62,712 nt of DNA, taken from the NCBI GenBank assembly GCA_007376345.1, contig VMGA01000003.1, positions 1 through 62,712 on the forward strand, read 5' to 3'. The notes beneath the pieces were generated by a model. That model did not search any database and was not told the DNA's origin. It worked only from the letters and a program-made list of their open reading frames with translations. The first letter of the stretch is position 1. Each line of letters begins with the position of its first letter. The stretch is from Microgenomates group bacterium Gr01-1014_16 (GTDB lineage Bacteria; Patescibacteriota; Microgenomatia; CAZETR01; Amesbacteraceae). Shown one piece after another: positions 7,417 through 44,240 of this stretch. A program made the translations under genes and the position numbers.

Positions 7417-7851
7417 GCTCTTCGCGATTTCTCCGGCCAGCCCTTCCATTGGACTGATTATTTTTATAAACACGTCACCTTTTTTCGTCAGTGCTGTCTG
7501 ATTACCGTCCTTAGTCAGTACTGTAACATTCGTGCTAACGTGGTCCGGCTCTCTGTCAAGTTTTCCCAGCCTAGCCACTTCCTCATCCACCAAATCCGGC
7601 AAGTTCTTCCCAGACTTCTCAATCTTCAAGTTCTTCTCAATTTCCCAATCTGCCGGATACTTTAACCTTATCCCCAGCTCATCATTCTGATAAATCTCCG
7701 TCAATTGAACATTGAACATTGAACTTTGAACATTTATTTTTGGACCTTTCCCATATTCCCTAATTTCTTCTCTTCTCCAGCTTTTATAATCCCAAACCGA
7801 AAACCCCACCCCCACTACCAGCAAAAGTGCTACAATTATCTTTAGTCGCAT
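7402..7851 (-). CDS. hypothetical membrane-anchored protein
   Basis: Start moved to MRLKIIVALLLVVGVG (a TM helix). The gene contains a TTGAACA tract encoding SSMFNVQL. Confidence 0.45.
   Translation of the reverse strand: MRLKIIVALLLVVGVGFSVWDYKSWRREEIREYGKGPKINVQSSMFNVQLTEIYQNDELGIRLKYPADWEIEKNLKIEKSGKNLPDLVDEEVARLGKLDREPDHVSTNVTVLTKDGNQTALTKKGDVFIKIISPMEGLAGEIAKSLVSF
7704..7734 (+). repeat. TTGAACA-type heptamer tract, in-frame in 7402..7851
   Basis: attgaacattgaacattgaactttgaacatt, encoding VQSSMFNVQL. Confidence 0.85.
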
Positions 7852-7852
7852 T

Positions 7853-8224
7853 ATGAAAGTAATTTTATCACTTCTGTTACTGTTACTGTTTACTTCGCCC
7901 GCCATAGCTTTAGCGGCGGCGGGTCCGGATGCTTCTCTTCGCACCGATCCCACCCACCGCTACGTTTTCCTGACTTTCTCCAACCTCCAAACAGCATCCA
8001 AAGTCAGCTATTCCCTGACCTACGAAACAAATAGCGTCACCAAAGGATTGGAGGGGGGCTTCAGGCTATTTGGCCGCCAGCGCCGCTCCGTCCGCCGCCA
8101 AATATTAGGCACCTGTTCGTCCGGCAAATGCGTTTTCCACGCCAACCCCCACTCCCTCCAGCTCAACGTCACCTTTACTCTCAAATCCGGCCTTACCACA
8201 ACAATTTCTAAATCTTTACAGTGA
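7853..8224 (+). CDS. hypothetical secreted protein
   Basis: Clear signal peptide MKVILSLLLLLLFTSPAIALAAA. It is divergent from 7402..7851 with a 1-nt spacer. Confidence 0.45.
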   Translation: MKVILSLLLLLLFTSPAIALAAAGPDASLRTDPTHRYVFLTFSNLQTASKVSYSLTYETNSVTKGLEGGFRLFGRQRRSVRRQILGTCSSGKCVFHANPHSLQLNVTFTLKSGLTTTISKSLQ

Positions 8225-8268
8225 TTGAGCATTGAACATTGAACATTGAACATTGAACATTGAATATT
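8224..8268 (+). repeat. TTGAACA-type heptamer tract (about 6 units), intergenic
   Basis: attgagcattgaacattgaacattgaacattgaacattgaatatt. Confidence 0.9.
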
Positions 8269-8273
8269 AAAGT

Positions 8274-8456
8274 ATGATCCCCCTCTACGGCCGGCCTCCC
8301 ACTACCTTAGAGCGCCTCAAAGACTACTTTACCTCCCGCTCACCCTACTGGTTAATCAAATTTTTCCGCTTCCTGGCCAAAATCGTCGAAATCGCTATTC
8401 GTTTTGTCATCGGTCTTTTCCAGGAAGCTATCCGTACTTTCCAAGGCAAGTACTAA
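8274..8456 (+). CDS. small hypothetical protein
   Basis: 60-aa ORF with an amphipathic/hydrophobic C-terminus. No homology recognised. Confidence 0.3.
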   Translation: MIPLYGRPPTTLERLKDYFTSRSPYWLIKFFRFLAKIVEIAIRFVIGLFQEAIRTFQGKY

Positions 8457-8457
8457 G

Positions 8458-10795: not shown

Positions 10796-10809
10796 ATCTC
10801 GAGTATACA

Positions 10810-11050: not shown

Positions 11051-11269
11051 TCACCTCCCCCCGCTCAAAGGATATAAATGTCCCAACACGCCAACCAGTA
11101 CAAACGCCGTCCCCCACCTAAATGGGTGTTCACCCACCAGCGGATAAGTCATCAGTATCCCGATCCCCACTCCCATCAACGTATGTACCAGAGCGTTGTA
11201 GTTGTAATGTTTTTTAAAGTAGTCTTCAATTTTCTTCAACTCACTCACCCCCTCTATCCAATATAACAT
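11051..11269 (-). CDS. small hypothetical membrane protein
   Basis: 72 aa with two hydrophobic helices. Its start abuts the stop of the upstream C39-like peptidase gene (shared base 11269). Confidence 0.4.
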   Translation of the reverse strand: MLYWIEGVSELKKIEDYFKKHYNYNALVHTLMGVGIGILMTYPLVGEHPFRWGTAFVLVGVLGHLYPLSGGR

Positions 11270-11982
11270 TATTTCCCCAATGCAATCATCACTTTTTTTC
11301 TCTCGGTTATTGGCTCATGATCCCCCGTGGGATAGTCTCGGATGGCATTAAACAGCGTTTCATATTTATACCGGTACTTTTCTCCCTTTCTCGTCCCCGG
11401 ATCATTCGTTATAAACTCCCCCGTTTCGTCATTGTACCCCCGAATCAAAATCATGTGCCTCTCCGGCCCCGGCGCCGTGTAATTCGGGTTCAGCCCCCTC
11501 CCGTCCACCGGTACAATCACAATCCTTCCCTTCGCCAACTCATCCCTTATCTCCTCGTAACCATGTAACAATGTAACCATGTAACCATCGAACTTAAAGT
11601 AATTTTTAATAATTCTTTCGGCCGTGTCCTCGGCCGACGTATCCACCCCACTCCCGTAATTCTCCTCCTCCCACTCCCAAATCCCCTCAATCTCCCTCTT
11701 CGCATAATTTTTATCTATGATTCCGTCCTTTATTAAACATTGATCATTGAACATTGAACATTTAAGCATCAGCGCTGATGCTTCCTCGCATCCGTCCTGA
11801 TGCCTTGGGTCACCCCACTCTCCAAACGGCGCCTGGCTGGTAAACGGAACGTCTAGTAACACAAAACTCTTCCTAACTGTTACAGTAGGCGTCGGCGATA
11901 TTTGCTCAATTGAAAATTGATTGAATCTTGAATATTGAATATTGAATATTAACGCAGCAATCGCTGCGATCATCCACTTCAT
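11269..11982 (-). CDS. peptidase C39-like (papain-fold) secreted protein
   Basis: DVPFTSQAP..DGCEEASALM resembles the catalytic Cys region of the Peptidase_C39_2 family. The gene contains two heptamer tracts. Confidence 0.6.
   Translation of the reverse strand: MKWMIAAIAALIFNIQYSRFNQFSIEQISPTPTVTVRKSFVLLDVPFTSQAPFGEWGDPRHQDGCEEASALMLKCSMFNDQCLIKDGIIDKNYAKREIEGIWEWEEENYGSGVDTSAEDTAERIIKNYFKFDGYMVTLLHGYEEIRDELAKGRIVIVPVDGRGLNPNYTAPGPERHMILIRGYNDETGEFITNDPGTRKGEKYRYKYETLFNAIRDYPTGDHEPITERKKVMIALGK
11732..11763 (+). repeat. TTGAACA-type heptamer tract, in-frame in the C39-like peptidase gene
   Basis: Encodes LKCSMFNDQCLI. Confidence 0.85.
11908..11950 (+). repeat. TTGAATA/TTGAAAA heptamer tract, in-frame in the C39-like peptidase gene
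   Basis: Encodes IFNIQYSRFNQFSI. Confidence 0.85.
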
Positions 11983-20381: not shown

Positions 20382-22010
20382 TTATTTATTCCGCGTCAAC
20401 TCCGCCTTTCTCCTGCTCAACTCCCCAATCTTGCTCGTATCATCTCCCACCATCCTTTCCTCAATATCAACTAGCTCCAGCAAATCCTTCGCCTCCTCCC
20501 ACTTTTTCTCGCTAAACTCTTCGTCAGTCAGCATCAACTCCTGCACCCGGCCTTTCAATTCACTAGGCAAATCATCAATGCGTTCTACTACTCTTCTCCA
20601 AAAATCCGTCTTTATCCATGAAATTTTACCCAGCTCTTTAGTTTTTTTCCCCAGCAGCGCCATCAGTATTAGTCTCTCCTCCCGTACTTCCCTCCGGCTT
20701 TTTTGGGATTTAAAATTTGGGATTTGGGATTTGTTTAGGATTTCGTGCTTAGAATTTAGAGTTTTCGCCAACTGGACTCTTATATCATCTTCGCCCACAT
20801 CCAACACTTTTGCCAGTTGGCGTATGTAGTGTGCTTTGACTATCTCATCGCTTATCCCCGCCCAAATCGGCAGCAATTCCTGTCCGATCTTCTTCTTCCC
20901 CGCTATCTCTAATCCATGTCTGGTAACCGCCGACTCGATATAAAAATCATAAATCGGTATCGCCTCCTTCACCGCCTTCTTCCACTCCTCCGGTTTTTGT
21001 ATTGCCAATTCTCCTGGATCCTTCGCCCCAGACAATCTAACCATCTTAACCATCAAACCGTTTTTATCTGCTATTTCTATTCCCCGCCGTGCAGCCGAAT
21101 CTCCCGCCACGTCCGCATCCAGCGCCAAAACTACCGTGTCACAAATCCTCCTCAATATTTCCACTTGCCTCTCAGTCAACGCCGATCCCTTTATCGCCAC
21201 CACGTTTGTCACCCCTGATTGCCAACTGGCAATCATGTCAATTTCTCCCTCCACAATTACCGCCCACCCCGCGTGTTTAATCTCACTCCTAGTTATATCC
21301 AATCCGTATAACAACTCGCTTTTGTGATAAATCTCCGTCTCCGGCGTATTCACATACTTAGCCTGTCCCTCACCATCCAATATTCTTCCCGCGAATCCCA
21401 TCACCTGACCCCTCGCATTGGCCAACGGAAAAATAATTCTATTTCTAAATCTATCATAACTTTTGCCTTCGACTACTAACCCCGCTCTTCTTAAATCGTC
21501 AATCTTTATGTTCTTTTTCCCCATGTACTTCGTCAGGAATTCCCATTCATCAGGAGCGTATCCCAAATTAAATTTCTCCACACTCTCTTCACTTATCCCC
21601 CGATCCTTCAAATACTCCAGCGCTTTTTTACCCGACTTATGCTTGGTCAGCAAATAATGATATGCCTGCGCCGCCAGGGTATTTATTCCGATCAACTTTT
21701 CCCTCACCTCTTCCACCCCGCTCGGCCGGTAACTCTCCAACGTCACCCCCACTCTTTTCGCCAACGTCTGCAACGCTTCTCCAAATTCCATTCCCTCTAT
21801 TTTTTGCAAAAAAGAGTAACAATCACCTCCCTCATTACAACCAAAACATTTAAATATCTGCAGCTCCGGATTGACCATAAACGACGGCGTCTTCTCCCCG
21901 TGAAACGGACACAATCCCTTAAAATTCCGCCCCGCCCGCTTCAGCTGCACATACTCCTGCACCAACTCCACAATATCGACTTTTTGTTTTATTTCCTCAA
22001 CCTGATCCAC
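20382..22010 (-). CDS. dnaG: DNA primase
   Basis: Zinc finger [17 protein letters not shown] and a Toprim segment ([20 protein letters not shown]). It lies upstream of rpoD, as in the classic dnaG-rpoD arrangement. Confidence 0.9.
20703..20765 (+). repeat. TGGGATT-type heptamer tract, in-frame in dnaG
   Basis: ttgggatttaaaatttgggatttgggatttgtttaggattt..., encoding ..[15 protein letters not shown].. Confidence 0.8.
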
Positions 22011-27439: not shown

Positions 27440-27526
27440 GGAAGGGTCGCATAGTGGTCTAGTGCCCGCGCTTGGAGAGCGCGTATGGCCGCAAGGTCAT
27501 CGGGGGTTCGAATCCCCCCCCTTCCG
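27440..27526 (+). tRNA. tRNA-Ser (GGA), class II with long variable arm
   Basis: Acceptor GGAAGGG/CCCTTCC, anticodon stem CGCGC/GCGCG with loop TTGGAGA, variable arm TATGGCCGCAAGGTCATC, T-arm GGGGG-TTCGAAT-CCCCC. Confidence 0.85.
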
Positions 27527-27544: not shown

Positions 27545-28711
27545 TTAGTGAAGGCGACCCTCCAATAAGATCGCTCCCGCCAATACTATTATCCCCACTA
27601 GTTCAAGTATCGCGTACCACGCGGGCCCTATTTGCAAGGCTCCCACCACCCCAATCATTCCCAACGCCAAAAAGACACCCCGCGTCTCCCCTAATTTCAT
27701 CATCAATCCGCGCGCGCTCAAAAACACGACCACCAGCAGCAATGTCAAATCAGAATAATTTACATGCCGGCTGGTAAACAAAGCCAAAAGTATAGCTAGG
27801 GCCCATCTCAAATCCAGCTCCTCAGAATCAACTCTCCATTTTCCTCTCCACACCAAAAATCCCACTATCATTACCACTGTCACACCTACCAACCAAACTG
27901 CGTCCCCCAACTGAAGTTTAGCCACCAATCCACTCCAACTATACTCCAGCTGGCTGTGTAATCCGTATGTTTCCCCCAGGTTCACTGCCTTCATACCCAA
28001 AGTCATCCATCCCACCAGTCCCGTCCATCCCACCATGTACCAACTTACTACCATCAACCCCAATATCCCCACCACCACGCCCCCCAAAAATCTCGTTTCC
28101 TTCTTCACGGTCCACATCAACACCAAAACCATCAGTAAATGCGGTTTTACCAGCATTAGCGACATCACCACTCCTGCCCAAAAAATTTTATTTCGCCTGG
28201 CCAACTCTGCCACCCCCCACATCGCCATTGCCAACCATCCGTCAAATCTTCCGTGTAGCCAATTCACTACCATTGGCGGAAATATCATCACCCCAATTAT
28301 CACCAACATTCCTCTTCCCAATCCTTTCCACGTCTCCGCTATCCCTCTTCCTCCTGCCATCCAGCTCGCCCAGCCCACAGTCATCACTACATTAATCCCT
28401 GCCCACACCCTATACGCTATCTCCACCCCCCACCCGGTCAATGGGACCAATATCAACACCGCCACCGGCAAATAAAACATCGGCAACACCCTCTGGCTTT
28501 CCGCCGCTTCCGGAAACAGTTTCCCCTGCCACTGCTTCTGTTCCTCCAGGTCATACAGCCTCTCCCCCGCCCCGCTCTTCCACATCACGGCTGCCCTAAA
28601 AAACGACCCGAAGTCTTTATTCACCATTCGGTTTTCAGCTTCCCGCTCTACATATTTCCACTGTGCTACCAGTAATACCCCGACTATTGCCAATACTATC
28701 CCCCACCTCAT
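27545..28711 (-). CDS. polytopic membrane protein (DUF2029/GT87-like, tentative)
   Basis: 388 aa, almost entirely TM helices. Confidence 0.4.
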   Translation of the reverse strand: MRWGIVLAIVGVLLVAQWKYVEREAENRMVNKDFGSFFRAAVMWKSGAGERLYDLEEQKQWQGKLFPEAAESQRVLPMFYLPVAVLILVPLTGWGVEIAYRVWAGINVVMTVGWASWMAGGRGIAETWKGLGRGMLVIIGVMIFPPMVVNWLHGRFDGWLAMAMWGVAELARRNKIFWAGVVMSLMLVKPHLLMVLVLMWTVKKETRFLGGVVVGILGLMVVSWYMVGWTGLVGWMTLGMKAVNLGETYGLHSQLEYSWSGLVAKLQLGDAVWLVGVTVVMIVGFLVWRGKWRVDSEELDLRWALAILLALFTSRHVNYSDLTLLLVVVFLSARGLMMKLGETRGVFLALGMIGVVGALQIGPAWYAILELVGIIVLAGAILLEGRLH

Positions 28712-30252
28712 TACATCCCCTTTCTCATAAATATCAATGCCGCCCCATCTTCATACACCATCTTCCATCCGACCGCTTCCAGTCTTACCGGCAATGGTTT
28801 CGGTTTTTTCCCCGGCTTCCCTAGTTCAATATTTATCCACACTTTAGTTTTAACCAGATCCCTCTTCGGCCACAACACCGCCTCCACTCCATGTTTATCA
28901 AAAATCGGCTCAAAATCCGCCCCCTCCCGGGTAATGTCCAAAAACTCCTCAAACGCCGAATAACCAGGCATTAAACATTGAACATTGAACATTGAACATT
29001 TCCATGATGGCATTCTCCCGTCCACAAATGTCTTATACTCCGGCAACTTCCAAATCAGATACCCTCCCCAATCATATGTAGAAAACAGCCTTCCCATGTC
29101 AGGCTGTCCTTTTAGCCATGCCACGGCTTTTTGCGGATAAAAACTGGCCTCACTCAAACTCCTCGAAAACCACAACTCCAACCCGCCCTGGACCACAAAT
29201 ACCATCACTGCCACTCCCACCATCAATTTATAAAATCCGCCCAGTCTCCGTCTCGCCTCGTCGTTTACCCCCACATCCTCCTCAAAAGCTTTCCACACCT
29301 TCCCCAGTCCCCATCCGGCCGTCAGGGCAAATACCGGCATATGCCGCAGGCTGGACAATCCTGCCACAAAAGTTCCCCCCACTATTAATCTTTCCGGCCA
29401 ACCCATCACCCTTCTGTATTTCCACCCCCACATCCCCACCATTGCCGCTAGCATCCAAAATGCTAAATCCACCCCCCCGTACCACGGCAGCCACTCGGCA
29501 ATCGTCGTCTTCAGACTCCGGTCCCCCGCCACTTCCCCAATCTCTTTCCACAACCTAATTCCATACGGGTTTATTAATACTGCCGCCACAACCAACCCCC
29601 CAACAAATAAGGCTTTTACTGCTTGGCTTCCCTCTCCTGCGGCGAAGCCACGAGCTTGCGAGATGCTAGGAGAGGGACCAGAGGGTGAGGTAGGGGGTAA
29701 GGTATTAGTAAGAATTTTCCCCGTCACCCCAGCTCCCAAAATCGCCAAACCCATCGCCACTCCGCTATGCAAATTTACCCACCAGCCGAAAATCACCGGC
29801 ACTACCCATTTCCACTTTTGCCAAACAGCATCTTCAAGTAATCTCAATATCACGGCAATCAGTAACCAATCTTCTACCTGTTGCCTCACTCCGGCTCTTC
29901 CGATCAAAACTGCTGCTCCCAATATCGCAGTCACTACCCCCCATCTTCCCTTGTCTGTCACTAGCCACAATGCTCCTATCGCCATAGTCGCGTACACCGC
30001 CGCCAAAAACTCTGTTCCCCCGGCCTGATACCCCACCCAAACCAGCACATCAGACAACCAGGCGTGGTCAATATATTTCCAATCGGGCATGGTGTACGAA
30101 AACGGATCGGTCACGGGCAACCCCGACTTCACAATCACTTCTCCCGTTCTCAAGTGCTGCCCAAAGTCCGGGTCCAGCATCCACAGCCCCTTCACCAAAA
30201 ACACCACCCACAATAAAACCCAACTAACAACCCGCCAGTAATTCTTTTTCAT
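28711..30252 (-). CDS. polytopic membrane protein with a C-terminal soluble domain
   Basis: 513 aa with about 10 or more TM helices. Contains a palindromic element (expanded loop) and a TTGAACA tract in-frame. Confidence 0.45.
   Translation of the reverse strand: MKKNYWRVVSWVLLWVVFLVKGLWMLDPDFGQHLRTGEVIVKSGLPVTDPFSYTMPDWKYIDHAWLSDVLVWVGYQAGGTEFLAAVYATMAIGALWLVTDKGRWGVVTAILGAAVLIGRAGVRQQVEDWLLIAVILRLLEDAVWQKWKWVVPVIFGWWVNLHSGVAMGLAILGAGVTGKILTNTLPPTSPSGPSPSISQARGFAAGEGSQAVKALFVGGLVVAAVLINPYGIRLWKEIGEVAGDRSLKTTIAEWLPWYGGVDLAFWMLAAMVGMWGWKYRRVMGWPERLIVGGTFVAGLSSLRHMPVFALTAGWGLGKVWKAFEEDVGVNDEARRRLGGFYKLMVGVAVMVFVVQGGLELWFSRSLSEASFYPQKAVAWLKGQPDMGRLFSTYDWGGYLIWKLPEYKTFVDGRMPSWKCSMFNVQCLMPGYSAFEEFLDITREGADFEPIFDKHGVEAVLWPKRDLVKTKVWINIELGKPGKKPKPLPVRLEAVGWKMVYEDGAALIFMRKGM
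28969..29001 (+). repeat. TTGAACA heptamer tract, in-frame in 28711..30252
   Basis: Encodes KCSMFNVQCLM. Confidence 0.9.
29629..29704 (+). repeat. palindromic hairpin element with an expanded loop (E6), in-frame inside 28711..30252
   Basis: tccctctcc-[28-nt insert]-ggagaggg-accagagggtgaggtagggggtaaggta, translated as ..TLPPTSPSGPSPSISQARGFAAGEGS.. Confidence 0.65.
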
Positions 30253-31718: not shown

Positions 31719-34103
31719 ATGCTCGAAAAGTTTGGTCATTGGTTCTTGGTACTTGCGATTTTATTGGGATTTGGGATTTGGTCATTGAGTTTTGCCTCGC
31801 CTTTGGCGAGGGCAGCCTGTTGGTGCACTACTCCGAATGCGACCACTCCCTGCGGCTGTGGCTACAGTCGTCCTCCTGGAGGACAATTTGATGAAGACGC
31901 CCTCAAAGCCAAATATTCCAGCGGCACATATATACCCGGACTAGATTATGTTGATCCTGAATTCTTTGATGGTGCTTATCATTCCGCCTCTCTTTGGGGT
32001 GTCCAACTAGAATGTAATACGGCCAAAGAAGCCAACAATTTTTACGCCAATCGCTCTCCCATTTGTCTCGGACTCGGACCGGAACAGGTTCCTTATTGCG
32101 CTTGCCGTCTCGATCCAAACGGCTCCATTGATTGTAGTCAAGTCACTTGTTACGGCACCGGAGCATACGTCAATAATGTCAATTTACCTAGAAACATCCC
32201 TGACGCCACCGCTGGATTAATAGAATGGAAACAAGATGTTGACTTCAATGGATTTCACGCCACTAACGTTAAAGATCTTCTGGTTTGTAGCTCGTCAGAT
32301 TTTTGTTGCAACAGAGGAGATCCGGATCCCCCCGGTTCCAAGCGTATTTTTCAATGCGCTGGAGACACAAACCCCCAGTTTCCTGGGTATGATAACTACA
32401 CCCACATTTGTCAACCGGAACGCAATGACTTAGTTTCCAAACTCAATCCCCAATGCGGCAACGACGAAACGGGCGGCGAATCCCGCCTCTTTTTCCCCCA
32501 CCTCAAATCCACTTCATTTTTAGCCACCCTGCTCCAATCCATGTTCATCCCCCACCCCAGCAGCCTTATTAGAAATCTCTTACCGACCAAAAACCTTGCC
32601 GACTACCTCAACAAAACAGTTACCAATCCCAACATCGATACTTCAAAAGTATATGAACACCAGGGAATAGACGATCAGACCCGAGTCGTCAATACTTCAG
32701 ACAACAATTCTTCAGTAATCGTAAATCGTGACGTCCAGCCCCCATATCCCGCTCCCAGATCTCCCTACAACTCATATGTTTGTTCTCTGACCCCCGTTCA
32801 ATCCAACAATCCCGGCGATGATTTATTGGGCCCCAAAATCCGTGCCTCGCTCACCTTCACTCAAAAATTCACTTACTCCTATTTGGGCAAACGCCCCGGA
32901 TGTAAAGAGGACGGTGCAGAGACAACCGACCTCAAGCTGTGTTGCTCCGTCGATCCCGCCACTCCCACCCCCGGCGGCCCCACCCCCACCCCGGGAACTT
33001 CATCTGGATGCGAATGCCAAATACCGTTCCAGTCTTGTCCCCCTGATAAACCAAGCGAAATTCCCAACCCAATCTGCACAGACACCGGCAGAGCTTGTTG
33101 CCCAGCCACCACTCCCGGCGGCCCCACTCTTGTCTGCCCCCCCATTCCTCCCCCTGGCCACCCCAAGCTTCCCAGCACCGGCACTCTCAACGTCGCCGTC
33201 AAAACTCCCCTCGTCGAGTATATTTCCGATACTGTTCTCACTGGTACCCAAGCCCTCATCAACCGTTTCTTTCCCCAGGGTTGGACCAAAACTATCCAGG
33301 AACTCCCCGTCCCGGTCACCTATTCCGCCTCCAGTGGCACCGTTCCTCTCAAAGTCGGCGACGGATCAACCTCAATTCCCACTTTCTACATCCCCAGAAT
33401 TGGCGCCTTATATCAACATTTTCTCGGCTCCGGCTGCAATTCCTATAATCTCCAACGTCTCCTCCGCCCCCTAGGTCTCATGGGCACCTGCCCCCCACCC
33501 GGTTCAGTCTATATCCCGCCTCCGACTACCCAATGTACTGAATTCTCTGTTCCCCTGGTAACCCAAGCCATCCAACTTGCTGCCGCCAGATATAATGTTC
33601 CCGTCTCTCTTCTTACTGCCGTTTTTGAAATCGAATCCTTCCCCTATATCACCGGCGCAATTCCCTATGTTTGTCAAAACAATCCCGCCCTAGCCGCCGG
33701 TCCCATGCAAATTACCCGCCCCACCTATGAACTTGTCACCTGTGCTGGTGAAGAATACCCCAACGATATAGGCATCTGTACTTCCGTTGCCGGGAAACTC
33801 TCCCGCTGCAGTATTGCTGACAACGTCGAGCTCGCCGCTCGCGTATTACTCTCCAAAGTCGGTTTGTGGAACTATACAACTTGTCAACCAACCGGAACAA
33901 TTTCACCCACAGCCAAAAGAACAATTTATGACGCAGTCAATCGTTATTATGGATTATGCGCCCCCGATAGTTTCACTAGGAACTATTCATACATTCTTCC
34001 GGGTCCCAAGCGAACTTTAGGTGACAATTACGGAGACATTATTCTCAACAAAATGGGTTTCATAAATTCACAATCAGATTACATTATCCCCCAATGCCCA
34101 TGA
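31719..34103 (+). CDS. large Cys-rich secreted protein with a C-terminal lytic-transglycosylase (SLT)-like domain
   Basis: Signal/TM helix, many Cys, Pro/Thr-rich linkers. The C-terminus LLTAVFEIES...AAGPMQITRPTY resembles the SLT catalytic E-S ... G-x-M-Q motifs. Confidence 0.5.
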   Translation: MLEKFGHWFLVLAILLGFGIWSLSFASPLARAACWCTTPNATTPCGCGYSRPPGGQFDEDALKAKYSSGTYIPGLDYVDPEFFDGAYHSASLWGVQLECNTAKEANNFYANRSPICLGLGPEQVPYCACRLDPNGSIDCSQVTCYGTGAYVNNVNLPRNIPDATAGLIEWKQDVDFNGFHATNVKDLLVCSSSDFCCNRGDPDPPGSKRIFQCAGDTNPQFPGYDNYTHICQPERNDLVSKLNPQCGNDETGGESRLFFPHLKSTSFLATLLQSMFIPHPSSLIRNLLPTKNLADYLNKTVTNPNIDTSKVYEHQGIDDQTRVVNTSDNNSSVIVNRDVQPPYPAPRSPYNSYVCSLTPVQSNNPGDDLLGPKIRASLTFTQKFTYSYLGKRPGCKEDGAETTDLKLCCSVDPATPTPGGPTPTPGTSSGCECQIPFQSCPPDKPSEIPNPICTDTGRACCPATTPGGPTLVCPPIPPPGHPKLPSTGTLNVAVKTPLVEYISDTVLTGTQALINRFFPQGWTKTIQELPVPVTYSASSGTVPLKVGDGSTSIPTFYIPRIGALYQHFLGSGCNSYNLQRLLRPLGLMGTCPPPGSVYIPPPTTQCTEFSVPLVTQAIQLAAARYNVPVSLLTAVFEIESFPYITGAIPYVCQNNPALAAGPMQITRPTYELVTCAGEEYPNDIGICTSVAGKLSRCSIADNVELAARVLLSKVGLWNYTTCQPTGTISPTAKRTIYDAVNRYYGLCAPDSFTRNYSYILPGPKRTLGDNYGDIILNKMGFINSQSDYIIPQCP
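31758..31781 (+). repeat. TGGGATT heptamer tract in the signal/TM region of 31719..34103
   Basis: attttattgggatttgggatttgg, encoding ILLGFGIW. Confidence 0.7.
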
Positions 34104-35110
34104 AAAAACTATTTTTTATACTTACACTTTTACACCTTTACACTTTTATGCTTCCGCGGCCAGCCTCCGCCCAATCAACCGATTTAACTCAATTCATAGC
34201 CGGACCAAATTTCATAGAACACTTGTTAAGCACCGGCGAAACTATCCGTTTTACCAACCAAGGAACGACCGCCTGTCCCGGTGGATCTTCTCCTGCCAGA
34301 ATGTATAAAAATAATAATTACGAACAATATTGCGTTGGCTCTTCGGGTGTATTCCGTCAGGAAGATACCAGCTGGGCTCCCCTTCCGGGATTTCAAGATG
34401 CGCACTGCCTAAACGGTGACAGGGCCATCTATACGTTAGACCCGGGATGCACCAAATATTCCGAAGGCCAAATAGTTAGTGGGGACGGAACTCTCTGGGC
34501 CATTCCATCCGCCTCTGTCGGTCAAACCTGGAACACCCAAGTTCACCAGATAGTCACAATTGATTCGGTCAAACTTGCCAATAACAATCAAAAAAACTAT
34601 TGTACTCTCGTCGATCTTTCTGGGTACTCAAATCCTGCCGCCTGCAACCAATCAAACACCATTCTTTTCGCTCAATTCATTCCAGCCAATTCAGGATTTA
34701 GATTTTGCACAGGAATAGAAAATCCTGAAGATATGATCAAACTCCAAAACACTGGTGGCGCCGGCTCTGGAGAAACATACTATTTCATGAAGGGATATGG
34801 TCTGGTTGGCTTCGAAGCCACGGGGTTCATTGCCGGGCTGATGGGACCGGGCGCAAACCCTTCCGGTTGCACTGGAGGGTCTGGTCCTCCGCCCGGTTCT
34901 CCTTCCAACCCCAATCCCCTCCTCTGGTCACCGGTACTAAAAGTTGGTTGTCCGGATTACAAAACCAATTTCCACTATCTCCGCCCGTATCCCGGCAACC
35001 CGATGTGCGATCCACTTATCCCCAGAACCAATCCAGACGCCGAGTCAGATCCCAACAAAAAATACAACACTTTGTCTTGCGGAAACAGTCTTTCCGGAGA
35101 ATCAACCTAA
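34094..35110 (+). CDS. hypothetical secreted protein
   Basis: Signal peptide ending PASAQS. It overlaps the upstream gene by 10 nt. Confidence 0.5.
   Translation: MPMKKLFFILTLLHLYTFMLPRPASAQSTDLTQFIAGPNFIEHLLSTGETIRFTNQGTTACPGGSSPARMYKNNNYEQYCVGSSGVFRQEDTSWAPLPGFQDAHCLNGDRAIYTLDPGCTKYSEGQIVSGDGTLWAIPSASVGQTWNTQVHQIVTIDSVKLANNNQKNYCTLVDLSGYSNPAACNQSNTILFAQFIPANSGFRFCTGIENPEDMIKLQNTGGAGSGETYYFMKGYGLVGFEATGFIAGLMGPGANPSGCTGGSGPPPGSPSNPNPLLWSPVLKVGCPDYKTNFHYLRPYPGNPMCDPLIPRTNPDAESDPNKKYNTLSCGNSLSGEST
34121..34150 (+). repeat. TTTACAC-type tract forming the signal-peptide core of 34094..35110
   Basis: Encodes LTLLHLYTFML. Confidence 0.75.
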
Positions 35111-38159: not shown

Positions 38160-38873
38160 TTATCTAGCCAGCACAAACCCCCAAACTTGCTTCACCCCAG
38201 CCTTTTTTAGCACGCGGGCGCACTCTCTCATCGTTGCCCCCGTCGTCCACACATCATCCACCAAAATAACAGCCGAAGGCGTTCTGATTTCCCTCTCCTT
38301 AAATAAGGAGAGGGGCAGGGGTGAGGTAGTAAAAGCGCCACTCATAGCGCTTAATCTCTCTTCCCTCGTCCTTCCTACCTGCGGCTTCGTTTCCTTAATT
38401 CTCGACAACAAATGACTATTGCATGCCAATGAATGCCGCGCAGCAAATGACTTAGCTATAATTTCCGCCTGATTAAACCCCCTCTCCCGCAATCTCTTCG
38501 GGTGCAGCGGCACCGGCACAACCACCGGCTTAGTTTTCAGGAATTTTTGAAAATTGAAAAATTGAGAATTATTTGAAAATTGAAAATTGAAAATTGAAAA
38601 TTCCCGCAAATAATCAAAGTAGAAATTGTATTTTGTTTTAGTAATTAATTTGCGGGTAATCCCCTCATATGTCCACAAACACGTCAGCCCCTCCAAATCT
38701 CCCTTGCAATATTTATGTCTTAATCCATTCCTGGAATTCCGCCCGCAAGTGGGACAAATCTGTTCCTCCTCCCACAATCCCACCTCGCAGTCACTGCACA
38801 CATAACTGCCGTATTTCCCACACCCCACGCACTTCTTCGGAAAAATCCAATCCAAAATATCCGAAATATTCAT
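38160..38873 (-). CDS. comF: ComF-family phosphoribosyltransferase-domain protein
   Basis: N-terminal double CxxC zinc finger and C-terminal VILVDDVWTTGATM PRTase motif. A heptamer tract and a palindromic element are both in-frame. Confidence 0.8.
   Translation of the reverse strand: MNISDILDWIFPKKCVGCGKYGSYVCSDCEVGLWEEEQICPTCGRNSRNGLRHKYCKGDLEGLTCLWTYEGITRKLITKTKYNFYFDYLREFSIFNFQFSNNSQFFNFQKFLKTKPVVVPVPLHPKRLRERGFNQAEIIAKSFAARHSLACNSHLLSRIKETKPQVGRTREERLSAMSGAFTTSPLPLSLFKEREIRTPSAVILVDDVWTTGATMRECARVLKKAGVKQVWGFVLAR
38290..38328 (+). repeat. palindromic hairpin element (E7), in-frame inside comF
   Basis: tccctctccttaaataaggagaggggcaggggtgaggta, translated as ..TTSPLPLSLFKERE.. Confidence 0.75.
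38543..38602 (+). repeat. TTGAAAA heptamer tract, in-frame in comF
   Basis: Encodes FSIFNFQFSNNSQFFNFQKF. Confidence 0.85.
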
Positions 38874-38979: not shown

Positions 38980-39336
38980 GGGGATGACGGGATTCGCTGA
39001 TTTAGCCCTTTGAAAACACATCAAGCCGAGTTTGAACCGCACTCGTAAAACAGGCTCAAAACTAAGTGTCAAAAATACTTTGACACGCGTGGCTAAGGCT
39101 CTCTTTGGAGAACCCAAGTACGCTCCTAATTATCTTTACGCTTAAGCGGGATAATTACGCATCTTAAATTCGCTTCCTCGACTGTGAATTTAGGGTGACA
39201 ACCAATCGAGGTGCTTCTAAACCAGTTTTGTTTAAGCGCGTTTAGAAAAAGACCAGTTAAACAAAAACAAAAAAGCTTGTACAAATGTGTTTCAATCCTA
39301 TTTCACACGGGGGTTCAACTCCCCCCATCTCCACCA
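38980..39336 (+). ncRNA. ssrA: tmRNA (SsrA)
   Basis: The 5' GGGGATGACGGGATTCG pairs with the 3' ..CATCTCCACCA, including a G3:U70 pair. T-arm GGGGG-TTCAACT-CCCCC. An internal open frame ends ...PNYLYA-TAA at 39143-39145. smpB is adjacent. Confidence 0.9.
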
Positions 39337-39761
39337 CGTTCCAAATCCCTCTTCTTAATACTTTCCCTCTTCTCATACTTCCTCTTCCCCCTGGCCAATC
39401 CCAATTCGATTTTCACAAACCCCGATTTGGTATATATCGCCGTTGGAATGAGGGTCAGTCCTCCGGATTTCATTTTCATCTGCAACGCCACCAGTTCCCT
39501 CTGGTGCAGCAACAATTTTCTCGTTCTCATCGGATCATAATTCGTGTTATCCGCGTGTTTATACGGATAAATCTGCATTCCCACCAACCACGCTTCCCTT
39601 TGAGTCTTGAACCTTGAATCTTGAATCTTTACATGAGAGCTTCCCATCTCCACCGCTCCCGCCTTTGCCGATTTAACTTCCGCCCCCGTCAACTGTATCC
39701 CCGCCTCCACAGTATCTTTTATTTCATAATCGAAATATGCCTTTCTATTAGTAATCTTCAT
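39315..39761 (-). CDS. smpB: SsrA-binding protein
   Basis: NRKAYFDYEI, AGIQLTGAEVKS, DPMRTRKLLLHQREL and a basic C-tail. The last 22 nt overlap the 3' end of ssrA on the opposite strand. Confidence 0.9.
   Translation of the reverse strand: MKITNRKAYFDYEIKDTVEAGIQLTGAEVKSAKAGAVEMGSSHVKIQDSRFKTQREAWLVGMQIYPYKHADNTNYDPMRTRKLLLHQRELVALQMKMKSGGLTLIPTAIYTKSGFVKIELGLARGKRKYEKRESIKKRDLERGGDGGS
39605..39630 (+). repeat. TTGAA(T/C)C heptamer tract, in-frame in smpB
   Basis: Encodes KIQDSRFKTQ. Confidence 0.8.
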
Positions 39762-39817: not shown

Positions 39818-41389
39818 TCACAACCCAATTTCCCAGATTTTAGCTCCGGAAAGCAAATATAATTTCTCATTCTGCTCATCGGCAATCATACCCGTCGCCT
39901 CCTTCGCCTGATCGAATATATATTGGCTCTCATATTCCCCAGTCTTTTTATACACCATTACCTTCCCCTCCCCCAAAACATACAATTTATCCGTTTCATC
40001 GCTCGTATAAATAACATCTCCACCCTCAATCTCCATCTCCATCTCTTTCACCCCCCTCGTAAATTTCAAAATTGAACATTGAACATTGGAAATTGGACAT
40101 TTTAGTATCCATATACTCCCGTCTATTGCCATACTTTTTCCCAAATCTTGCTTTTCATCCAACCACTCGTCCTTTTTTTCATTCGACCGATATACCCATA
40201 TTTCATCCGTGTCCAACAAATAAATATTTCCCGCCCAAGTCTCAGTGTCTTTTATCTCTTTCCACCCTTTATCTATGGGTATTTGCACTTGATTGCCCAA
40301 CACATACAACTTTCCCTCACTCACTTGTGCGACCACCTTACCGTTCCCCGATTTCAAACCCACCTCCACTACCCTTCCTTCGTCCGCCAAAATCCGCAAA
40401 CTTCCTTCCGCCATCACCATTTTTTCTCCTGTCATTCCATCCCGAACCAGTCCCAAATCAACCAACTCCTCCGCCTCCGGCCTTCTTACTCCCATCGCCT
40501 CTTCCCTCACACCCTCAATTTCATTCTCAATCTCCGCTATCCCCTTTATCCCCCTTAACTCGCTTATCCCGCTTTGAACTTCATCTAGCAGTTCCCGGCT
40601 TCTCACTGGATTCAACCCCGCCAGTCCCTTCGCCTCATCAAATTTCTGTTTTATTGTTTCTATCTTTTCATCTATGCCGCTCCGTCTTCTTTCAATTTCT
40701 TTCTTCCACATCGCCCCTCCTCCCACTAAAATCGCGAATAACACCAAAAACCCCACCCCAGCCCAAATCGGCTTTATTTTCGGTGTCCTCGGAACCTGGT
40801 ACTTGATGCTCGGCATCCTCACCCCTCCCCACCACTGCGTCCTCTCCGGTTTTTGTATTTGAATTTTGTCATTTAGATTTGAATTGATATTTGTAATTTG
40901 TAATTTGAATTTGATAATGGCTCCCACCGCGCCCCTCCCCCTCTCTCCTCCATGCACCACCGCTCCCAACTCCTCGGCGTCCGTCATTGTCCTCACCATC
41001 CCTTCCGGCACACACCCCCAAAATCTCTCATTCCCCATAGTTAAAGTCAATCCGTCCTCAATATTACTTACCAATACTCCCTGATTAGCCAACCATCCTT
41101 GTTTTCCCCCATTCCGCCTCACCCAAGTCTTCAGTTTTCCCGCTACAAAAACTCGTGTTGCTACCACCGCTACTACACCTACTTCCGCTCCAAATTCTCC
41201 CATTACCGCGGTCACCGCTTTTTCCAATCCCTCCCCATGCTGCAATTCTCTAATTCGGGTCAATGCTTCCCGCCCTGCCTCCGCCCCACCCGCGAAACTA
41301 ATCACCACTACCAAATCCCCGAAATTATGCACCTGTCCCCACTCCCCCTCCCCCATCTGTCCCACAATCTTCCCCACACTCATTTCCAT
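39818..41389 (-). CDS. hypothetical single-pass membrane protein (cytoplasmic N-domain, coiled coil, repeat-rich ectodomain)
   Basis: 523 aa with a central TM helix IWAGVGFLVLFAILVGGGAMW. Two low-complexity repeat tracts are in-frame. Confidence 0.45.
   Translation of the reverse strand: MEMSVGKIVGQMGEGEWGQVHNFGDLVVVISFAGGAEAGREALTRIRELQHGEGLEKAVTAVMGEFGAEVGVVAVVATRVFVAGKLKTWVRRNGGKQGWLANQGVLVSNIEDGLTLTMGNERFWGCVPEGMVRTMTDAEELGAVVHGGERGRGAVGAIIKFKLQITNINSNLNDKIQIQKPERTQWWGGVRMPSIKYQVPRTPKIKPIWAGVGFLVLFAILVGGGAMWKKEIERRRSGIDEKIETIKQKFDEAKGLAGLNPVRSRELLDEVQSGISELRGIKGIAEIENEIEGVREEAMGVRRPEAEELVDLGLVRDGMTGEKMVMAEGSLRILADEGRVVEVGLKSGNGKVVAQVSEGKLYVLGNQVQIPIDKGWKEIKDTETWAGNIYLLDTDEIWVYRSNEKKDEWLDEKQDLGKSMAIDGSIWILKCPISNVQCSILKFTRGVKEMEMEIEGGDVIYTSDETDKLYVLGEGKVMVYKKTGEYESQYIFDQAKEATGMIADEQNEKLYLLSGAKIWEIGL
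40070..40101 (+). repeat. TTGAACA/TTGGAAA heptamer tract, in-frame in 39818..41389
   Basis: Encodes KCPISNVQCSILKF. Confidence 0.85.
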
Positions 41390-41468
41390 ATAATTCCAGT
41401 ATACCCCAAGATCTCCAGGCGCAGACGCGCCAGTCCCGAGCGAAGTCGAGGGGCGCGCGTCGAGCCTG

Positions 41469-41699
41469 TTAAAGAATCACAACCATCCCCGCCGTCAACA
41501 ATATCGCCAATATCAAATGCAATATTCCCGCTATTTTTACAACCCGATTTGCTTCCGATTCCAGAGTTTCTGTCATTATCTTCACCTGCATCACCAGAAC
41601 TACCGCGAATCCGCAGTACAGCGCCATGCCCGCAATCATCATCAATTTTACCAGCCCCAACACTGAAAAATTGAGTATTGAATCTTGAATATTGAACAT
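41469..41699 (-). CDS. small two-TM membrane protein
   Basis: 76 aa. The N-terminus MFNIQDSILNF is encoded by a heptamer tract. Confidence 0.35.
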   Translation of the reverse strand: MFNIQDSILNFSVLGLVKLMMIAGMALYCGFAVVLVMQVKIMTETLESEANRVVKIAGILHLILAILLTAGMVVIL

Positions 41700-41700
41700 T
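41669..41700 (+). repeat. TTGAnnA heptamer tract forming the 5' end of 41469..41699
   Basis: Encodes MFNIQDSILNF. Confidence 0.8.
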
Positions 41701-42387
41701 TTATTCCCCCCGTTCCCTTCTTTTTTCCAGCTCCTCGGATAATTCCGAAATAATCCGCACTACTCTGTCCGGATACGGCACCGCCCGGGCTTCGGCCGTT
41801 CCGTCGGACGCCGCCGTGGCCACAAACACATCGCCGTACTTAAACAATGATCGGAAAAACCCGCCGGCTACCATCGAAGGCTCCTCAATATGATTCAAAT
41901 TGGCATAACTCACCACCCGAGTCAATAAATTTATAAAGTCAATATCCACCACCCGCTCGTTTGTTACAAAAAAAACCGAGTAATACCAATTCAAAAACCG
42001 CTCCAGTCCATACGCCAGCACCCCCAGGTACCACATCAGCTTTCCCATCACTACAAACCTCACCGGCACAGTAGAAAATACTCCCACAGCCGTCAGCAAT
42101 TCCGGTAAAACCACTAACCCCATCATTACCAATATCCATTTCAAATTTGTGATCGGGTGCGCCCGCAACAGCAGCACAACTTCTTCATCATCCTGCTCAT
42201 TTATAAATCTCTTCCCCGGATTGACACAGTACGCCCCCATCATCTCCCTCCCCTGCTTCTCCCCGGACTTTTCCAATATCTGGGCCACAAACACCTTCGG
42301 GTCAAACCTACTTGCCCCTAACGTAGCTTCATGCGAAGTGGGGTCTACTGGCTTCACTGCATCTGGGGCTTGATAAACATCCGGCAT
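41701..42387 (-). CDS. membrane protein with a bacterial PH-like (bPH_2/YdbS-like) domain (tentative)
   Basis: Two TM helices are followed by ...NERVVDIDF...FKYGDVFVATA, resembling bPH domains. Confidence 0.4.
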   Translation of the reverse strand: MPDVYQAPDAVKPVDPTSHEATLGASRFDPKVFVAQILEKSGEKQGREMMGAYCVNPGKRFINEQDDEEVVLLLRAHPITNLKWILVMMGLVVLPELLTAVGVFSTVPVRFVVMGKLMWYLGVLAYGLERFLNWYYSVFFVTNERVVDIDFINLLTRVVSYANLNHIEEPSMVAGGFFRSLFKYGDVFVATAASDGTAEARAVPYPDRVVRIISELSEELEKRRERGE

Positions 42388-42503
42388 AACTCAATTCTAT
42401 CACTACTTTCTTTTCAATCACGCCCCTCACGACTTGCGAAAGCGGACCCTGCTTTGCAGGGGAGCACTGAGCAACAAAGTGAGGTAAGGGATACAGAAAA
42501 AGT

Positions 42504-44240
42504 TTACTTTTTCTCTATATTAAACAGATAAGACTTGAGAGATAGCATCCCAGGAGCTCTTAAATTAAAGGCTTTATAAAAATTAGCCCCCGAAATGTTT
42601 ACCTCACCCCTATTAGTACTAAAAACTACCTGATTTGTCTGTCCATTACTGCCGTGTTTAATTGAAATATTTGTTACGTTTGTCACATTTCCCCCGTATT
42701 TTCCAGCCTCTTCAGCCATTTTTCCTTTACTCCACCCTGCCGTTCCGGTACACCCGTCCTCCGGCAGTATCCCGCTGGTGTCTCCCCCGCCGGCTACAAT
42801 AATCACCGCGTTTACCACATCTGCCATTTCTTCCGTCCGCAACCACGGGTGGCTTCGTCCACAGGTCTTGCCCGACCTCGACTTATACCACCCCTTATAA
42901 AACCACGGGCTTTTCGCCTTCACTTCCCACGCCCCGTCCGCCCACTTTGTCCAATCAGAAGTCGTGTCCCAAAATCCCGGCGTGCTGTGTCCACTCGCAC
43001 TGTACGCCTGCTGGTATCCCCCGGATGTTGACGCATACCAAGACGAAAACGACTTTCCTCCCGCCACCAGTACCCAACCCCTTGTCGCGTTCACCGCCTC
43101 CTCCCACCTCCCGCCCTTATTGGCCGGTTTATAAACTTGGCAAGCTTCAGTGGCACAAATCGACCCCGCTCCGTTGTTTGTGTAGGCCAGGGCATAGCTT
43201 CTCGCCGCCACTGCCTGTGCTTTCAGCGCTTCCATTCCCCCCTCGTCCCCCCAACTCCCCGGCATCTCGTAAATTCGCTTTACATAAGTTTCAATATCTA
43301 CCGTACCATACCCCCGCACACTTATATTTATATCCGTCCTATAAACCTTATCTAGACTTATTTCCCCATAATACGCCCGCAGTATCTGCTCCACATTTTG
43401 TCCAGCCTTCGCCCGTCCAAATGCTCCGTACTGGCTCATCCCCCGAAAATGCGGCGCCCCGAACGAAAACACCGCGAATGCCGGCGAAAATCCCGGATTA
43501 TAATCCGGCCGGGACGCCGGGTCGTCCGCCAGCGGCACATCTCCCACCGTCGTCGAAAACACTCCCGTCCTCTCCGCCAACAATTCCTGTTGCCGGGCAG
43601 ACAGCGCCGCTATCTTCCCTCCCAAGTCCGTAACATATCTATCTGCTTTTGCCACCTCTCCCGCCAAAAACGTCGCCTGCTTATCCACCCTCACCCTCAA
43701 TCCGTCCAAATTCTTTTTTTGGACATTGAGCATTGAACTTTGAACATTCAAATCATTTATTTCTCTAGAGATCCCTGATATGACTTCTCTATCATTCGCC
43801 GCCAGTCTCTCTCTATACCCAGCGTCTCTAAAAAACTTCTCCGCCGTCCCCGAAGAAAGTAGTACCAACAGCATGGGCTGTTCCCTCCTCCTCACATAAT
43901 CCTGCCTGATCTTCGCCGCCAGCAACTCCTCTTTCACCCCAATCTTCACCTCCCTCTCAAAAATATCCTTACTCAACTTATCCAGCTGCTTGTCCAAATT
44001 TGAAATCTGATTCTTGAGCCCTGCAACCTGAACCCTGAGTCCTTCCAATTCTTTAGCGTTGGTTGCGTTTGCCTTTGCTATCGCATCCAAAATCCCGGAA
44101 TACTTACCAATGCACTGCCCGATCTTAACCGCATCCGTCAAGCCTCCCGGATTGTCACACTCCTCAGCGCGGACGAGCGACAAAGCCACAAAGTAGCAAA
44201 GTAGCAAAGTAACTAATGCCAAACTTACTCGCTTAACCAT
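42504..44240 (-). CDS. SpoIID/LytB-domain protein with an N-terminal coiled coil
   Basis: Signal peptide, a long coiled coil, then RGMSQYGA...ALKAQAVAARSYAL...CATEACQVY, typical of SpoIID. Confidence 0.75.
   Translation of the reverse strand: MVKRVSLALVTLLLCYFVALSLVRAEECDNPGGLTDAVKIGQCIGKYSGILDAIAKANATNAKELEGLRVQVAGLKNQISNLDKQLDKLSKDIFEREVKIGVKEELLAAKIRQDYVRRREQPMLLVLLSSGTAEKFFRDAGYRERLAANDREVISGISREINDLNVQSSMLNVQKKNLDGLRVRVDKQATFLAGEVAKADRYVTDLGGKIAALSARQQELLAERTGVFSTTVGDVPLADDPASRPDYNPGFSPAFAVFSFGAPHFRGMSQYGAFGRAKAGQNVEQILRAYYGEISLDKVYRTDINISVRGYGTVDIETYVKRIYEMPGSWGDEGGMEALKAQAVAARSYALAYTNNGAGSICATEACQVYKPANKGGRWEEAVNATRGWVLVAGGKSFSSWYASTSGGYQQAYSASGHSTPGFWDTTSDWTKWADGAWEVKAKSPWFYKGWYKSRSGKTCGRSHPWLRTEEMADVVNAVIIVAGGGDTSGILPEDGCTGTAGWSKGKMAEEAGKYGGNVTNVTNISIKHGSNGQTNQVVFSTNRGEVNISGANFYKAFNLRAPGMLSLKSYLFNIEKK
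43721..43749 (+). repeat. TTGA(A/G)C(A/T) heptamer tract, in-frame in the SpoIID-like gene
   Basis: Encodes LNVQSSMLNVQKK. Confidence 0.85.

Follow-up and report, generated by a model that had tools for sequence, protein, structure and literature searches.

Heptanucleotide tracts and their host genes

The stretch of DNA described here is 62,712 nucleotides of contig VMGA01000003.1 (assembly GCA_007376345.1) from Microgenomates group bacterium Gr01-1014_16, referred to below at its full length as the window, and the elements in question are short tandem arrays of a seven-nucleotide unit of the form TTGAAnn. The gene content of the window, which includes T4SS_pilin, DUF5657, DUF4012 and a tmRNA, is like that of the candidate phyla radiation (CPR) and the host is a groundwater CPR bacterium, probably Candidatus Amesbacteria, to which the nearest named homologues of its DUF4012 protein belong. 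In the region 7704-43748 Tandem Repeats Finder identifies 14 arrays of period 7 with TTGAAnn units, each with 3.9-8.3 copies, and as the array at 38547-38602 is made up of two sub-tracts there are 15 tracts in 14 arrays (Table 1). When a tract is defined as two or more TTGAA cores at a spacing of 7 nt, a direct count gives 15 for the + strand and 0 for the - strand, against a mean of 0.46 for both strands together in first-order Markov simulations of the window. Exact period-7 runs of at least 18 nt number 18, where the simulations expect 0.03, and each of the periods 4-6 and 8-15 has only 0-3 runs. It is apparent that tandem heptamers occur at many dispersed loci and far above chance; the initial annotation, which had listed at least 15 heptamer tracts of a single + strand polarity, is borne out on both points.

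The tracts are of rather uniform size, with 4.3-4.6 copies in 11 of the 14 arrays, a mode of about 4.4 units and a typical length of 31 nt. Each has 4-5 recognisable units, of which 2-5 are perfect, the units at the edges being degenerate and the boundaries sharp. The consensus is TTGAAnn in all 14 arrays and of TTGAACA type in ten (nine TTGAACA and one TTGAACT). Lengths do vary, and no inverted repeats, target-site duplications or defined ends were found at the tracts of the window.

Thirteen tracts lie within minus-strand open reading frames (ORFs) that remain intact, as had been claimed, and 13-14 of the 15 are intragenic. A unit of 7 nt, which is not divisible by three, is found inside 12 ORFs. 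The positions within the hosts span aa 1 to aa 440 with no 5' bias. Pfam supports SmpB, a ComF-like protein (DZR_2 and Pribosyltran), DUF4012, SpoIID, Peptidase_C39_2 and DUF5657 as hosts, the remainder being proteins with weak PsbP_2 and PMT_2 matches and three unannotated membrane proteins, so that the earlier description of the hosts as unrelated and in part housekeeping proteins stands, as do the recurring peptides of the (C/S)SMFNVQC and IQDSRFN type that were quoted for them. In the DUF5657 protein the tract precedes the Pfam domain (aa 16-76). The tract at 8224-8268 had been called intergenic, this is right in so far as it lies between annotatable genes, but an ORF of 77 aa without a Pfam match starts inside it. 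Two other causes were considered and rejected. An assembly artefact does not account for tracts that are below the assembly k-mer length, are the same in two independent assemblies and are present in many related contigs, and an alternative genetic code is not called for when the ORFs are intact under table 11 and have good Pfam matches.

Both the shared polarity and the shared peptides can be understood from the unit itself. TTGAAnn units place a TGA in all three + strand frames, whilst the minus-strand reading is stop-free, with (TGTTCAA)n on the minus strand reading CSMFNVQ without stops. The orientation of an intragenic tract is therefore forced, and because most genes are on the minus (G-rich) strand, which holds about two thirds of the ORF sequence of the window, polarity is uniform. 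The uniform polarity is fully predicted by stop codons and is probably not a signal. With no common factor between 7 and 3, a set of three units (21 nt) passes through all phases and each frame gives the same cyclic heptapeptide, which is why unrelated proteins share CSMFNVQ or DSRFKIQ. TGTTCAA tracts also encode Cys-x6-Cys automatically, this being seen in DUF4012, C39 and membrane proteins (the window tracts of this type begin at 11732, 24574, 26959, 28969 and 40071).

Table 1. Period-7 tracts of the window; the last five rows are tracts with other units, additional to those of the initial annotation.
Position	Strand	Unit and copies	Encoded residues	Host or context
7704-7734	-	TTGAACA x4.4	INVQSSMFNVQ, aa 74-83	183-aa ORF (7402-7953), weak PsbP_2 match
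8224-8268		TTGAACA x6.4, longest tract		Between annotatable genes; 77-aa minus-strand ORF (8020-8253, no Pfam match) starts inside, + strand ORF (7853-8224) ends there
11732-11762	-	TTGAACA x4.4	KCSMFNDQC, aa ~74-84	Peptidase_C39_2-like protein (11269-11982)
11920-11950	-	TTGAATA x4.4	IFNIQYSRFNQ, aa 11-21	Peptidase_C39_2-like protein (11269-11982), directly after N-terminal hydrophobic segment
24574-24605	-	TTGAACA x4.6, perfect	NVQCSMFNVQC	DUF4012 (23430-24863)
25153-25183	-	TTGAAYA x4.4	SNIQYSMFNK	PMT_2-like membrane protein (24832-26430)
25646-25672	-	TTGAATC x3.9	FKIQDSRFN	PMT_2-like membrane protein (24832-26430)
26959-26989	-	TTGAACA x4.4	CLMFNVQCS	392-aa membrane protein (26274-27452)
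28969-29000	-	TTGAACA x4.6	KCSMFNVQC	513-aa membrane protein (28711-30252)
38547-38602	-	TTGAAAA, two sub-tracts	FSIFNFQFS..QFFNFQKF	ComF-like (38160-38873)
39600-39629	-	TTGAATC-type x4.3	KIQDSRFKTQ	SmpB (39315-39761)
40071-40101	-	TTGAACA-type x4.4	CPISNVQCSIL	523-aa protein (39818-41389)
41670-41700	-	TTGAAYN x4.4	MFNIQDSILN, first residues	DUF5657 protein (41469-41699)
43719-43748	-	TTGAACA-type x4.3	LNVQSSMLNVQ	SpoIID (42504-44240), coiled-coil part
20702-20743	-	TTTGGGA-type (coding strand CAAATCC)		DnaG primase (20382-22010), C-terminal linker
26557-26619	-	FKFLIFNFKSIFKSKFLNLK, degenerate A/T-rich period-7/14 stretch		392-aa membrane protein, second site
31764-31781	+	TTGGGAT x2.6		794-aa gene, near N-terminus
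40851-40918	-	KFKLQITNINSNLNDKIQ		523-aa protein, second period-7 site
43998-44042	-	GLRVQVAGLKNQISN		SpoIID coiled coil, second period-7 site

Among the tracts with other units, the TTGGGAT of the 794-aa gene is stop-free in both orientations and has the same + strand polarity as the tract of DnaG. There is also an 8-nt tandem family (TTACACTT, ACTCTTCT, CAAAGTAG), found in + strand genes at 6903-6933, 34122-34148, 45048-45083 and 51061-51093 and on the - strand at 44189-44211 in SpoIID, which occupies hydrophobic N-terminal segments or signal peptides of proteins that are secreted or pilin-like (MKKL...LHFYTFTL) and is T/C-rich in coding orientation on both strands. As these period-8 tracts of signal peptides follow gene orientation on both strands, they fit a coding constraint.

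The GC skew of the window is extreme, at -0.13 to -0.50 when calculated per 2 kb, is near zero only at 12-16 kb, and remains negative across a block of + strand genes at 44-52 kb. The tmRNA gene (38980-39336, +) is convergent with smpB (39315-39761, -) and overlaps its 3' end by ~22 nt, whilst an Rfam DUF3800-III RNA motif (71 bits; 44882-44978, -) overlaps the 3' end of the DUF3800 gene (44255-44920, +). Over 11,187 nt, a Logan assembly from a different run matches the window at 100% identity. Compared over a 20-kb overlap with an ENA contig (L001), the window is without 118 nt (at ~37598; L001 12166-12283) and 204 nt (at ~35101; L001 14784-14987) and is elsewhere identical but for one mismatch. 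An RsmB-like methyltransferase and a 553-aa ORF each appear as two separate ORFs in the window, and these differences could be strain variation or a difference of assembly.

Tract sites in related genomes

Relatives of the window were collected with a metagenome scan for SmpB, which provided 80 loci with 46-79% SmpB identity and conserved synteny, and a further seven loci came from DUF4012 homologues. The relatives contain 57 period-7 runs, compared to at most 13 for periods 4-6 and 8-15, with the density of period-7 tracts running parallel to strong GC skew, as it falls from 1.2 per 10 kb to 0.09 in the more distant relatives of low skew. They prefer other units, and in the case of locus L153 there are four different units within 15 kb. 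A sliding scan against a codon-randomised null finds significant segments that fall together in the same columns of the alignment across many orthologues, and also reveals sites that have been lost from the window. The sites are shared and the units are not. Over these alignments as a whole, tract sites are old and permissive and their units turn over in concert, sometimes with the gain of about 7 residues.

In SmpB the insert is of 7 aa, with the motif KIQxSxFKxQ, and is common to orthologues of at least 62% identity, whilst it is absent from outgroups and from the solved SmpBs, relative to which the protein is longer by about 6 aa with the insertion aligned to a gap. The DNA of this tract retains its periodicity in the window (AAGATTC), L146 and L137 (AAAATTC in the last two) and has decayed in others, the motif being retained where the periodicity has decayed. 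A single-sequence AlphaFold2 model of SmpB had a mean predicted local distance difference test score of 34.5 and was unusable, the alignment to solved SmpBs being relied on instead.

The 523-aa protein has an insert of about 7-8 aa that is phylogenetically patchy among its orthologues, and at one site each lineage has a nearly perfect unit of its own (TGTTCAA, CAAATCT x4.7, CAAGGTC or GAAATTA). Period-7 hot spots occur at three sites, in 14/36, 14/36 and 6/36 orthologues, and at the second site of the window the 14/36 share the same alignment columns; in the relatives L127, L137 and L162 the TGTTCAA unit is found at a different site of the protein. Distant orthologues in which the periodicity has been lost keep a Cys pair (C-x5/6-C, alignment columns 530-552), which hints that the pair may have been recruited, possibly as a disulfide loop.

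Not all tracts add residues. The initial annotation had treated the tracts as insertions, this holds for SmpB, DUF4012, the 523-aa protein and the 513-aa membrane protein, whilst the tracts of SpoIID and ComF are ordinary aligned residues in orthologues, an outcome that the annotation had itself named as speaking against its reading. The SpoIID tract has no indel relative to orthologues, yet a significant 7-nt periodicity (P <= 0.0065, codon-randomised null) is present in 8 of 11 distinct orthologous sequences, with units of CTCAATG, CTCAGTG, TTAGGAG, CTAAGGG and TTGAGAG. Its two sites are hot spots in 10/14 and 9/14 orthologues, the second site of the window being the one common to 10/14, with CTCAAAT, TCGCAAA and other units there; repeats of CTCAAAT encode ISNLKSQ, which is a good coiled-coil heptad. 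ComF is of unchanged length compared to its close orthologues, which have AATTTCT units at the tract, and has hot spots in 5/25 and 10/25 orthologues; no match was found between ComF and solved structures. Two strains that are 96% identical overall differ by a patch in ComF, where L161 (~3188-3240) has a GATTCAA-type heptamer tract, FDSRIKIHGSRFKNI, and in L160 the place is taken by unrelated sequence, shorter by 2 aa. Divergence is raised in the adjoining DNA as well, a sign that recombination may have produced the difference.

DUF4012 has a net gain of 6 aa over homologues of 67-73% identity, at a hairpin site in the variable stretch between invariant G81 and D106 where those homologues are already period-7 (AATCAAG/ACTCAAG/ATTCAGG), and in another lineage a separate insert is made of CTAAGTG units. 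The linker of DnaG, C-terminal to the match to the DnaB-binding domain (aa 355-408), is period-7 in all five species examined (the window and four relatives) and has a different unit in each. In one relative, L205 (Candidatus Amesbacteria GCA_016176615.1), DnaG has an in-frame TAG at ~2950 where relatives have Glu, which is not at the tract. Both sites of the PMT_2-like protein are common to its 46%-identical orthologue in L162, again with other units, there being a CCATTTA tract at the first and a decayed ATGTTCA tract at the second. The 392-aa membrane protein is longer than its orthologues by 2 aa and the 513-aa membrane protein by 5 aa, the orthologues of the latter being without the tract.

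Origin of the tracts

The tracts are probably heptanucleotide simple-sequence repeats (SSRs) of the class with 5-11 nt units, driven by slippage and unusually intragenic in this CPR lineage. Replication misalignment in a 7-nt register would make short arrays, and slippage, together with transient misalignment in which one unit is copied over its neighbour, would keep re-homogenising them. In a compact genome selection would purge versions that break the frame or add a stop, so that the survivors might consist of about one resident unit, with partial overlap, plus three added units (21 nt or 7 codons), giving the tract of 4.4 units and 31 nt. Tracts would then persist only when stop-free and where the protein tolerates some 7 extra or arbitrary residues, such as in beta-hairpin turns, inter-domain linkers, coiled-coil heptads and the edges of membrane helices. 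The degenerate edge units, the 4-5 good units and the sharp boundaries fit arrays homogenised by slippage, and concerted change of the unit without change of length may reflect transient misalignment or compensated slips. From these features of the tracts we infer that slippage or misalignment generates and homogenises the arrays, and that its products are selectively neutral or tolerated.

A number of observations weigh against this explanation. Coding DNA has as many tracts as non-coding DNA (1.2 per 10 kb), which is unexpected because little coding DNA should be permissive. Purely local seeding should yield diverse units, whereas the TTGAACA type dominates. Nearly all long tracts contain a CAA core, compared to only ~28% of A/T-rich stop-free heptamers, and for this reason stop avoidance was rejected as the sole cause of the TTGAA core. 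Periodicity survives to ~45% protein identity, which needs either a high rate of homogenisation or selection. Between DUF4012 of the window (AATGTTC) and its ~70% identical relatives (AATCAAG-like) 4 of the 7 positions of the unit differ, and this looks like replacement more than gradual drift. Nothing here explains the 7-nt register. There is room in this residue for ectopic conversion or an active process, and the peptides may have been recruited secondarily (C-x6-C loops, coiled-coil heptads).

Two other readings go back to the initial annotation. Contingency loci, in which gain or loss of one unit would reversibly frameshift the host gene, could provide an episymbiont with ON/OFF heterogeneity in envelope and other proteins; a unit of 7 nt is suited to this as one unit more or less shifts the frame, envelope or membrane proteins form the majority of the hosts, and repeated OFF/ON cycles could explain long-retained repetitiveness and concerted unit change at orthologous sites. 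Against it, the tracts have few perfect units and are not 5'-proximal, frequent inactivation of hosts such as SmpB and DnaG is implausible, and the available data hold no unit-number polymorphism. No indels of 7, 14 or 21 nt were found in 327 kb of near-identical-strain alignments (at least 93% identity, mostly at least 99.5%), in which the indels are of 1, 2, 3, 4, 12 and 17 nt; no variant alleles of ten tract-bearing proteins were found in 90% identity clusters, which have one or two members; and among the dozens of contigs examined no orthologous allele was frameshifted by a change in unit number. The sole disrupted gene at a tract region is the ComF of L162 (4087-4700), which compared to L161 and L163 has a frame-breaking deletion of 92 nt that removes exactly the variable segment bearing the tract of the window, and its end points are not heptamer repeats and it is not a unit slip. 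Phase variation is thus unsupported by strain alignments and orthologue contigs, though rare variants may occur, and the contingency reading is considered quite unlikely. The other reading was of polar signals tolerated in coding sequence, which could be DNA signals similar to Chi, KOPS or uptake sequences or, as considered here in addition, regulator-bound RNA sites. The 15:0 polarity, the extreme GC skew that extends over the block of + strand genes and the regulator-binding role proposed for TAACTGA repeats (see below) are in its favour, as is CAAATCC, which is stop-free both ways and yet is on the G-rich strand in 4/4 cases, two of them in genes of the opposite strand. Stop codons however fully predict the polarity, the tracts are within ORFs and not in 5' untranslated regions, and there is no fixed word, with units not conserved between related species at orthologous sites. 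To our knowledge the known polar motifs are single fixed words and not tandem arrays. The strand difference in density is weak (1.22 per 10 kb in genes of the G-rich strand and 0.60 in those of the C-rich strand; 22 significant period-7 segments in minus-strand and 5 in + strand genes of the window, with 2.15-fold more sequence scanned in the former) and no GC-skew switch was found among the 80 related loci. Evidence for polarity beyond the effect of stop codons is thus thin, with none of it decisive, and a polar signal is extremely unlikely.

An active, sequence-directed spread of a genome-specific heptamer, by ectopic gene conversion, templated addition or a tiny mobile insertion, would make the tracts copies of one another. 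Such a process would account for the TTGAACA-type units shared by 10 of the 14 arrays in unrelated genes, for the replaced unit of DUF4012, for TGTTCAA at another site of the 523-aa protein in three relatives and for the divergent ComF patch of L161 with its heptamer tract that is absent in strain L160, and dominance of a single heptamer has been reported for TAACTGA in Beggiatoaceae, with horizontal transmission suggested. Yet defined ends, target-site duplications and inverted repeats are absent, lengths and units vary within a genome as in L153, and relatives without the extra residues are already period-7 at the site, which fits evolution in situ. Homologous recombination usually needs a length at or above that of these tracts (20-35 nt), which also counts against copying, and on balance active spread is unlikely. 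Selection on protein modules is a further possibility, in which the heptapeptides have been recruited, as C-x6-C loops in the envelope or a/d heptads in SpoIID, and the sites are kept by selection. This is suggested by the Cys-x6-Cys of TGTTCAA tracts in DUF4012, C39 and membrane proteins, by the C-x5/6-C that distant orthologues of the 523-aa protein keep where the periodicity has gone, by the good heptad ISNLKSQ of the SpoIID coiled coil and by the SmpB motif that outlasts its DNA periodicity. However, protein selection alone cannot hold a 7-nt periodicity of the DNA above a codon-randomised null, the units and hence the peptides differ widely among species at one site, and the insert is absent from many orthologues. 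As the cause of the tracts protein selection is very unlikely, although it is compatible with slippage-driven SSRs as a secondary effect.

Slippage-driven repeats thus remain the preferred explanation, and our verdict is that the tracts are an intragenic, site-conserved form of known heptanucleotide repeats, neither a contingency system nor a polar signal. A bolder alternative is that a dedicated or strongly biased process in a 7-nt register continually rewrites permissive loops and linkers with a genome-specific heptamer, so that the tracts would be modules of evolvability or switching and not neutral debris. This is speculative and rather improbable, but if true the rewriting could be linked to a replication peculiarity behind the extreme GC skew, and the tracts would allow proteins to change length in frame, or envelope genes to be frameshifted rarely and reversibly.

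Significance and known repeat systems

Heptanucleotides are the most over-represented class of long SSR in prokaryotes and are essentially unexplained (PMC4679880, PMC4692102). Since the genome of the window is almost all coding its tracts are filtered to stop-free sets of three units, and orthologous sites can be traced over many species, so that fixed sites with concerted turnover of the unit provide a handle on the rate and mechanism of 7-nt misalignment. The tracts are also a route by which loops, linkers and coiled-coil heptads acquire residues. Heptapeptides such as CSMFNVQ and DSRFKIQ produce spurious similarity among unrelated proteins, and for in-frame SSRs in smpB- or dnaG-like genes an annotation as phase-variable needs evidence from reads.

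A literature search found nothing specific on TTGAACA/TGTTCAA repeats or on tandem repeats of CPR bacteria or Amesbacteria. The repeat is not restricted to one lineage. A scan of genome collections for (TTGAACA)3 gave over 120 loci, spread over Prevotella and other Bacteroidota, Cyanobacteria, Verrucomicrobiota and Planctomycetota, and one in Falkowbacteria, with 56 of 122 matches in these other phyla in frame in ORFs of at least 100 aa. Five loci from rumen Bacteroidaceae, Verrucomicrobiota, Flavobacteriales and Planctomycetota (L013, L014, L064, L074 and L076) have 5-10 heptamer tracts per 4-8 kb, with the related units TGTTCAA, TTTTCAA, GTTCAAG and TGTTCGA, some of them in frame in ORFs of over 400 aa and some in arrays of up to 139 nt.

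Some systems resemble the tracts in a single respect. Contingency loci of Haemophilus, Neisseria and others share an SSR in an ORF with a unit that is not a multiple of three, but they are long, usually 5'-proximal or in the promoter, variable in unit number between strains and known with out-of-frame alleles, none of which is seen in the window. Rickettsia palindromic elements are in-frame mobile insertions; unlike these, the tracts are variable in length, have degenerate edges and no inverted repeats, and occupy sites shared with orthologues. In Borg elements tandem repeats that create disordered regions of the protein arise de novo and evolve fast within ORFs (PMC9879509). The likeness lies in intragenic tandem repeats that add residues in uncultivated microbes. 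The intragenic unit lengths of Borg repeats are reportedly divisible by three, whereas in the window, with its unit of 7 nt, only sets of three units preserve the frame.

The closest systems are other heptanucleotide repeats. Over-representation of heptanucleotides in prokaryotes, with polymerase slippage proposed as the cause, is due to Mrazek et al. 2007, as summarised in PMC4679880. As in that class of 5-11 nt units, head-to-tail heptamers are far above chance in the window and slippage in a 7-nt register is proposed; unlike it, the genome is that of a compact CPR bacterium and 13-14 of the 15 tracts are in frame inside genes. The class is said to come mostly from large genomes and to have, in coding regions, units divisible by 3. 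The window shares with the heptamers GGGAATC of Xanthomonas and GGGGA(T/C)T of Nostoc, the latter of the cyanobacterial STRR type, an array size of about four units and partly the sequence, with a GAATC core in common and TTGGGAT of the window close to GGGGATT. Those repeats are dispersed arrays with a strong bias to about four units, are G-rich and form G-quadruplexes, are intergenic in 89-93% (Xanthomonas) and 68% (Nostoc) of cases, and are roughly equal on both strands and under-represented on the coding strand (PMC4692102), whereas the units of the window are A/T-rich and intragenic.

The TAACTGA repeats of marine Beggiatoaceae, cyanobacteria and Bacteroidetes have one dominant heptamer in sets of 2-6 copies, and as the forward unit has stops in all three frames, intragenic copies are only reverse-oriented, and through them unrelated proteins come to share a heptapeptide, mostly in their peripheral parts (PMC4679880). 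Most sets are however intergenic and directly upstream of start codons, where a site for a translational regulator has been proposed (PMC4679880). A predominantly intergenic location, which describes the Xanthomonas, Nostoc and Beggiatoaceae examples and is not a strict definition of the class, is thus the feature in which the window departs from all three. With TAACTGA it shares a dominant heptamer, an orientation forced by stop codons and heptapeptides common to unrelated proteins, and it differs in that its tracts are internal to ORFs and their unit varies between sites and between species.

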